From a virus (lineage: Duplodnaviria > Heunggongvirae > Uroviricota > Caudoviricetes): DNA of 9,704 nt. The stretch is taken from positions 1 to 9,704 of IMG/VR virus record IMGVR_UViG_2537562013_000016; one strand, written 5' to 3'. Made by a program: the position numbers and the translations under genes. Shown here piece by piece: positions 8,118 through 8,140 of the stretch. The stretch's first letter is position 1. Each line of letters begins with the position of its first letter. The notes under the pieces are model-generated. The model made no database searches, had not been told where the DNA came from, and saw only the letters and a program-made list of their open reading frames with translations.

Positions 8118-8140
8118 TTGACTCCTGTGATCTTCCGCCA
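8118..8140 (+). other. att core: last ~21-23 nt of tRNA-Sec (selC), in attP-type context between crr and int
   Basis: TTGACTCCTGTGATCTTCCGCCA matches the T-arm/acceptor 3-prime end of E. coli selC (...GGTTCGACTCCTGTGATCTTCCGCCA) as I recall it, with one mismatch at the 5-prime edge; the sequence upstream is AT-rich and does not continue the tRNA, so this is not a tRNA gene. Confidence 0.65.

Follow-up and report, generated by a model that had tools for sequence, protein, structure and literature searches.

The 21-nt sequence at positions 8120-8140 is very probably a chromosomal junction in a tandem array at selC, in which a P4-like satellite has been inserted before an older tia island. The succession of crr, core and integrase found around this sequence mimics an attP site but is really the satellite's attR joined to what was once the attL of the island. 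The window, i.e., the whole stretch of DNA analyzed here, is the entire 9,704-nt contig AQCU01000213.1 of the draft Escherichia coli assembly GCA_000354395.1. Both of its ends are assembly breaks and not biological ends. The contig has no terminal overlap, and a circular-contig signature was rejected on this ground. The features on which the analysis relies are the following (int2 is the integrase encoded in the window and int1 the one encoded at the other end of the satellite, outside the window):

1-521, minus strand: 5' part of a cargo gene (about 173 codons, cut by the contig end), with a PADLOC match to PDC-M18A
630-695, no strand assigned: cos region, matching the P2 cos region at 91-95%
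818-2695, minus strand: P4 late genes psu (818-1390), delta (1464-1964) and sid (1961-2695), by P4 homology
3247-3513, plus strand: P4 ORF88, an AlpA-family HTH protein, by P4 annotation and domain search
3572-3857, plus strand: P4 immunity RNA region, by Rfam, with c4-a1b1 (3572-3624), isrK (3585-3662) and C4 antisense / CI RNA (3770-3857)
5308-7641, plus strand: alpha primase-helicase, 777 aa, by ORF and P4 homology
7688-7987, no strand assigned: crr (cis-required replication region), containing two repeats of 120 bp, placed from the P4 annotation
8041-8064, plus strand: satellite P arm, tandem 12-bp repeats ATATGTATAAGG ATGTGTATAAAT, ending 55 nt left of the core
8120-8140, plus strand: att core, equal to the last 21 nt of selC; core of the satellite attR and of the old tia-island attL
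8141-8438, plus strand: int2 P' arm and leader, 298 nt, by collinearity with H10407 and arm repeats
8251-8274, plus strand: int2 right-arm repeats TTGGGGGTACTT TAGGGGGTATTA, P4-Int-like, GGGGGTA-type
8293-8304: inverted copy of the right-arm repeat, GGGGGTA-type
8366-8377, plus strand: right-arm repeat TTGGGGGTATCA, GGGGGTA-type
8439-9630, plus strand: int2, frameshifted tyrosine integrase of the tia/leoABC island, by ORF and H10407 homology
9631-9704, plus strand: beginning of the tia island interior, by collinearity with H10407 and ST131

The core and the two elements that it joins

Positions 8120-8140 (GACTCCTGTGATCTTCCGCCA) are identical, over 21/21 nt and with the CCA included, to the 3' end of the 95-nt selC gene, as established with the tRNA-Sec genes of four E. 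coli genomes. Going left, the first mismatch is met at 8119 (T in the window, C in selC), 23 of the 24 nt at 8117-8140 are in agreement, and to the left of 8117 the alignment of the window with selC shows unrelated sequences. The preliminary description, which had placed the core at 8118-8140, was hence right to within 2 nt. The selC 21-mer occurs once in the window, even when up to three mismatches are allowed, and in 0/200 shuffled sequences. ARAGORN called no tRNA in the window and Rfam returned no tRNA-Sec match in it; a truncated tRNA at the core was rejected on these two results, and no complete tRNA gene was found at the site. The earlier view that a selC 3' end is present here with no tRNA body, and that the site is not an attL beside an intact selC, is thus confirmed. 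So is the position of the core between crr, 132 nt to its left, and the start of an integrase ORF, whose ATG at 8439 is located 298 nt to its right. An ORF of 58 aa (8109-8285) runs across the core, and no gene is called there in any source.

On the left side, the window is a P4-like satellite, as judged from psu, delta, sid, the immunity RNA, alpha, crr and cos being present in P4 order, with Pfam domains in agreement. Homology to phage P4 (98.1% nucleotide identity over window 654-7989) spans psu, delta, sid, the immunity region, alpha and crr; it begins at 654, the counterpart of the P4 right end (11624), and ends at 7989, directly past crr, the coordinates of which were transferred from the P4 annotation (locus coordinate + 653). 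The c4-a1b1, isrK and C4 antisense RNA calls are as expected for such a satellite. ORF88, which we take to be P4 Vis, is the putative excision directionality factor of the satellite. The psu, sid and Icd/ASH-like proteins of the window are very widespread, with 617 to 16,538 blocks retrieved by exact look-up.

Between cos and int1, a cargo slot (window 1-521, minus strand; positions 413-2158, minus strand, of L007, a locus from a sister contig) contains two genes matching the PADLOC candidate defence pair PDC-M18A/B (E = 2e-34 and 2e-14), neither of them with a Pfam domain. The M18A gene is represented in the window by its 5' part alone; complete in L007, it encodes 386 aa, and its partner PDC-M18B and int1 are located beyond window position 1. 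The left contig break, inside the M18A gene, coincides with no obvious repeat.

[quoted passage not shown] From 8120 to 9704, the window is the H10407 sequence that follows selC, save for this extra G. The integrase heading the tia/leoABC island in ST131 strains likewise matches int2 at 99.9% of the DNA. The extra G at 9234 breaks int2 by a +1 frameshift: the N-terminal ORF (8439-9275) encodes 278 aa, the rest of the catalytic domain is in another frame (9238-9630), and the Pfam profile of this domain is split between the two frames at position 58/61. As int2 is frameshifted, the tia island should be unable to excise via its own integrase.

The two integrases, int1 and int2, share 68% of their residues; no record of the phage collection exceeds 51% identity to int2, and the cluster names of both are generic and provide no family label. 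The contig stops about 300 nt short of an IS3 insertion (window 9704; L007 11266-11564) that is present in the sister contigs and in H10407 and absent in ST131, and the proximity of this insertion to 9704 probably accounts for the assembly break on the right.

Breakpoints, sister contigs and the empty site

The limits of the satellite were established by comparison with strain 14EC007, in which a P4-like satellite at selC is 99.7% identical to window 1-8141, the homology stopping at the last base of the core. The order in 14EC007 is selC, int1 (395 aa), two cargo genes, psu through alpha, crr, the core and then the chromosomal setC. Its int1 is located at the selC-proximal end of the satellite and adjoins an intact selC. 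In 14EC007 as well as in the O157:H7 strain BB24-1, a second copy of the core is present at the other end of the satellite, within the intact tRNA gene.

Exact look-up of the 278-aa int2 product retrieved four sister contigs holding the whole window at 99.97-99.98% identity. The contigs in which the window is embedded range from 99 to 512 kb, L007 being taken from the 512-kb one. Upstream of the window, they carry the remaining cargo genes and then the final 418 nt of int1, which do not differ from 14EC007. It is from these sister assemblies (2-3 mismatches), where int1 is covered over these 418 nt only, that we deduce how the array of the source strain continues on the left. Downstream of int2 and past the IS3, L007, the sole locus reaching beyond this element, continues with an IS66, a sulfatase-family gene, leoA and leoB.

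Two further loci, L008 and L011, have yicJ, an intact tRNA-Sec gene and then, directly, the identical frameshifted int2, with no satellite. Starting 3 nt upstream of the core, the sequence of L007 is that of L008 throughout, the IS66 insertion excepted, and L011 likewise shares this sequence. L007 and L008 are thus an occupied-site/empty-site pair with its breakpoint at the core. The occurrence of the same lesion at 9234 in these satellite-free sister strains makes it a lineage marker, which probably predates the satellite or is at least independent of it.

The junction is well represented among complete genomes. As one uninterrupted stretch, it is found in 35 of 5,426 complete E. coli genomes, always on the chromosome and mainly in O145:H28 and O157:H7. 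None of the 5,426 contains an uninterrupted copy of a reconstructed attP with matched arms (P arm, core and int1 leader); 489 of them have both of its halves, at separate places, as expected for integrated satellites. Among the loci that were fetched, every P4-like satellite at selC possesses an int1-type integrase (86-100% identical to int1, 69-72% to int2), and every int2-type integrase either heads an island or comes after alpha-crr-core. The complete chromosome of BB24-1 has the same selC-int1-satellite-crr-core-int2-island architecture; it reads selC, int1, a dCTP deaminase gene, the block from psu to alpha, core and int2, and then other island genes along with IS elements.

In 14EC007, which has no tia island, the sequence past the attR core resembles the start of an int2-type leader (L002 15141-15380 and L003 from 14528, set against window 8141-8200; e.g., ...cctctcctgac/aactctcc...cccttgta...). 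The "native" selC flank may itself be the relic of an older int2-type island.

Arm repeats and the order of integration

The two arms flanking the core carry repeats of different types, ATGTGTATA-type on the left and GGGGGTA-type on the right. The left-arm tandem pair is present in a single copy in the window and absent from shuffled sequences, and its distance to the core is 55 nt vs 53 nt in P4. Its motif recurs as ATATGTATAGTA ATGTGTATAGAT just upstream of int1, in the attL of 14EC007, and three 9-mers of the left arm are also present in the int1 leader, as against zero in the int2 leader. The repeats at 8041-8064 are hence putative arm-type binding sites of int1. From their position and co-occurrence, each repeat type can be tentatively assigned to its integrase, and the junction, as read from these repeats, has a P arm from the int1 system and a P' arm from the int2 system. 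Matched arms are expected in a functional attP, and in the annotated attP of P4 the tandem 12-bp repeats flanking the core are all of the GGGGGCA type. The arms of the window bearing repeats of different integrases, the junction is read as a satellite attR fused to the old attL of the island. Of note, the int2 leader of O157:H7 is about 86 nt shorter (L003 14528-14722 vs window 8141-8438) and is devoid of what lies between the first GGGGGTA repeat and the last; the content in arm repeats thus varies among int2-type islands.

P4-type tyrosine integrases, by integrating at a tRNA 3' end, place the newcomer next to the tRNA body. The tia/leoABC island, headed by int2, would have integrated first at the selC 3' end, and the P4-like satellite would then have recombined its attP with the selC 3' end through its own int1. 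Such an integration would rebuild the tRNA 3' end from the copy carried by the satellite, selC being restored on the left of the latter. Since the 3' end is rebuilt from the copy of the incoming element, the newcomer would come to lie between the tRNA body and the older island and, being tRNA-proximal, would have its distal end (alpha, crr, P arm and core) abut the P' arm of the island and int2. The core would now serve as an attR substrate for int1 assisted by the AlpA/Vis-like ORF88, and its recombination with the core copy in selC would excise the satellite and restore the selC-int2 arrangement found in L008. A minority of excised satellite circles may be present in the source strain.

The preliminary description had favored an attP in an excised or circular element, mentioning a junction in a tandem array only in brackets. 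It is the bracketed option that breakpoints, sister contigs, empty site and arm repeats bear out. For the core to be a true attP, the contig would have to be the larger part of a P4-like element that exists as an excised circle (or as a linear molecule with cos ends) and has acquired int2 as its own selC integrase. The order crr, core, int is indeed the one of the P4 attP, the contig with its 9.7 kb is near the size of a P4-like genome, and int1 and int2 share the selC core, so that a module swap is conceivable. We nevertheless consider this very unlikely, as the ends of the contig run into different chromosomal contexts in 99.98%-identical sister assemblies, the arm repeats are mismatched across the core, window 9631-9704 is tia-island sequence, and no surveyed satellite owns an int2-type integrase; moreover, int2 carries a frameshift that is also found beside selC in satellite-free strains.

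The reverse order, with the satellite already in place when the tia island arrived, is, in our judgment, highly improbable. It is true that the final arrangement by itself gives no date for either insertion, and that a loss of the satellite from the satellite-free strains would look the same as its never having been there. However, a newcomer at the tRNA 3' end adjoins the tRNA body, and it is the satellite that is tRNA-proximal in comparable complete genomes; in addition, a frameshifted int2 beside selC exists without satellite, as expected if the island came first.

With int2 dead and the satellite supplying an active selC-specific integrase, the junction might be more than a scar: int1 and the Vis/AlpA factor could in principle act in trans on the att sites of the island, mobilizing or deleting the tia island together with the satellite, or the satellite attL could recombine with the distal attR of the island with the same outcome. 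Taken jointly, we give these two variants very little credence, and the difference in arm repeats argues against int1 recognizing the att sites of the island. Finally, an assembly chimera, in which a satellite attR would have been misjoined to an island attL through their common 21-24 nt repeat, is extremely unlikely. The window is admittedly a short contig from a fragmented draft, and the join falls within repeated sequence, but this repeat is shorter than usual assembly k-mers, and the same junction recurs in 35 closed genomes and in no fewer than four independent assemblies, one of them a Logan assembly made from a separate run.

The array reading has consequences for annotation. On a short draft contig, crr-core-int looks like the attP of a free element, yet this arrangement is expected from repeated integration at one tRNA gene. 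Considering the arm repeats on both sides of the core, the breakpoints with respect to single-element genomes and an empty-site comparator allows such a misreading to be corrected. Regarding the locus itself, a P4-like satellite with a candidate defence pair has settled before a tia virulence island whose integrase is inactivated, in an ETEC-like lineage.

Likeness to known selC elements and arrays

Our literature search found no paper on tandem P4-like integrase arrays at selC. Tandem arrays are also present in four of the loci (L025, L026, L038 and L039) at a site flanked by ADH and LptF/G genes, which we take to be leuX. There, the satellite is P4-like and has an integrase of 421 aa; past its alpha gene come another integrase, of 422 aa, and an hsd restriction island, with the same crr-then-int appearance as in the window.

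Phage P4 itself (leuX-specific, X51522) has a backbone 98% identical to window 654-7989 and a similar att layout, in which tandem 12-bp arm repeats end some 55 nt to the left of the core, itself about 20 nt long and equal to a tRNA 3' end. It differs by its core, the leuX 3' end and not that of selC, and by its left-arm repeats, GGGGGCA-type instead of ATGTGTATA-type. Moreover, both arms of the P4 attP are of one type, whereas the right arm and the integrase of the window come from another element.

A parallel for the target is phiR73, described in a passage of PMC6174562 (citing Sun, Inouye and Inouye 1991) as a P4-like cryptic prophage, or retronphage, integrated in selC. Like the satellite of the window, it is P4-like and has the selC 3' end as attachment site, and the likeness is established for this target only. 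The satellite of the window has no retron and bears a PDC-M18-like gene pair as cargo. The integrase beside the window core is furthermore not the one of the satellite. The suggestion of a phiR73-like integration module next to the core is therefore not supported, int2 belonging to the tia island; what remains of it is that the satellite does target selC, through int1, outside the window, and not through the adjacent int2. Another P4-like satellite at selC (L028 12201-14446), with an int1-type integrase (95% identity), has in its cargo slot a reverse transcriptase (RVT_1, 469 aa) and a SLATT_5 protein, which recalls the reverse transcriptase-based cargo of phiR73 at selC.

[quoted passage not shown] Window 8117-9704 is its selC-proximal end at 99.9% identity, including the 298-nt leader and the integrase, and L007 continues into the same sulfatase-family gene, leoA and leoB. 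In contrast to H10407, the integrase is frameshifted in the lineage of the window and the attL core is cut off from the selC tRNA body by the satellite.

The selC arrays of O157:H7 and O145:H28, composed of selC, a P4-like satellite and the LEE, have the same architecture and the same hybrid junction, with 88-90% identity across it: as in the window, an int1-type satellite P arm is followed by the core and an int2-type leader. The downstream island is the LEE and not tia. In BB24-1, int2 is intact (94% amino acid identity to H10407 int2), while in O145 it has been replaced, the leader being followed by an IS3 remnant and then by the LEE. The junction at 8120-8140 is thus an ordinary and well-represented chromosomal scar, of a kind already known.
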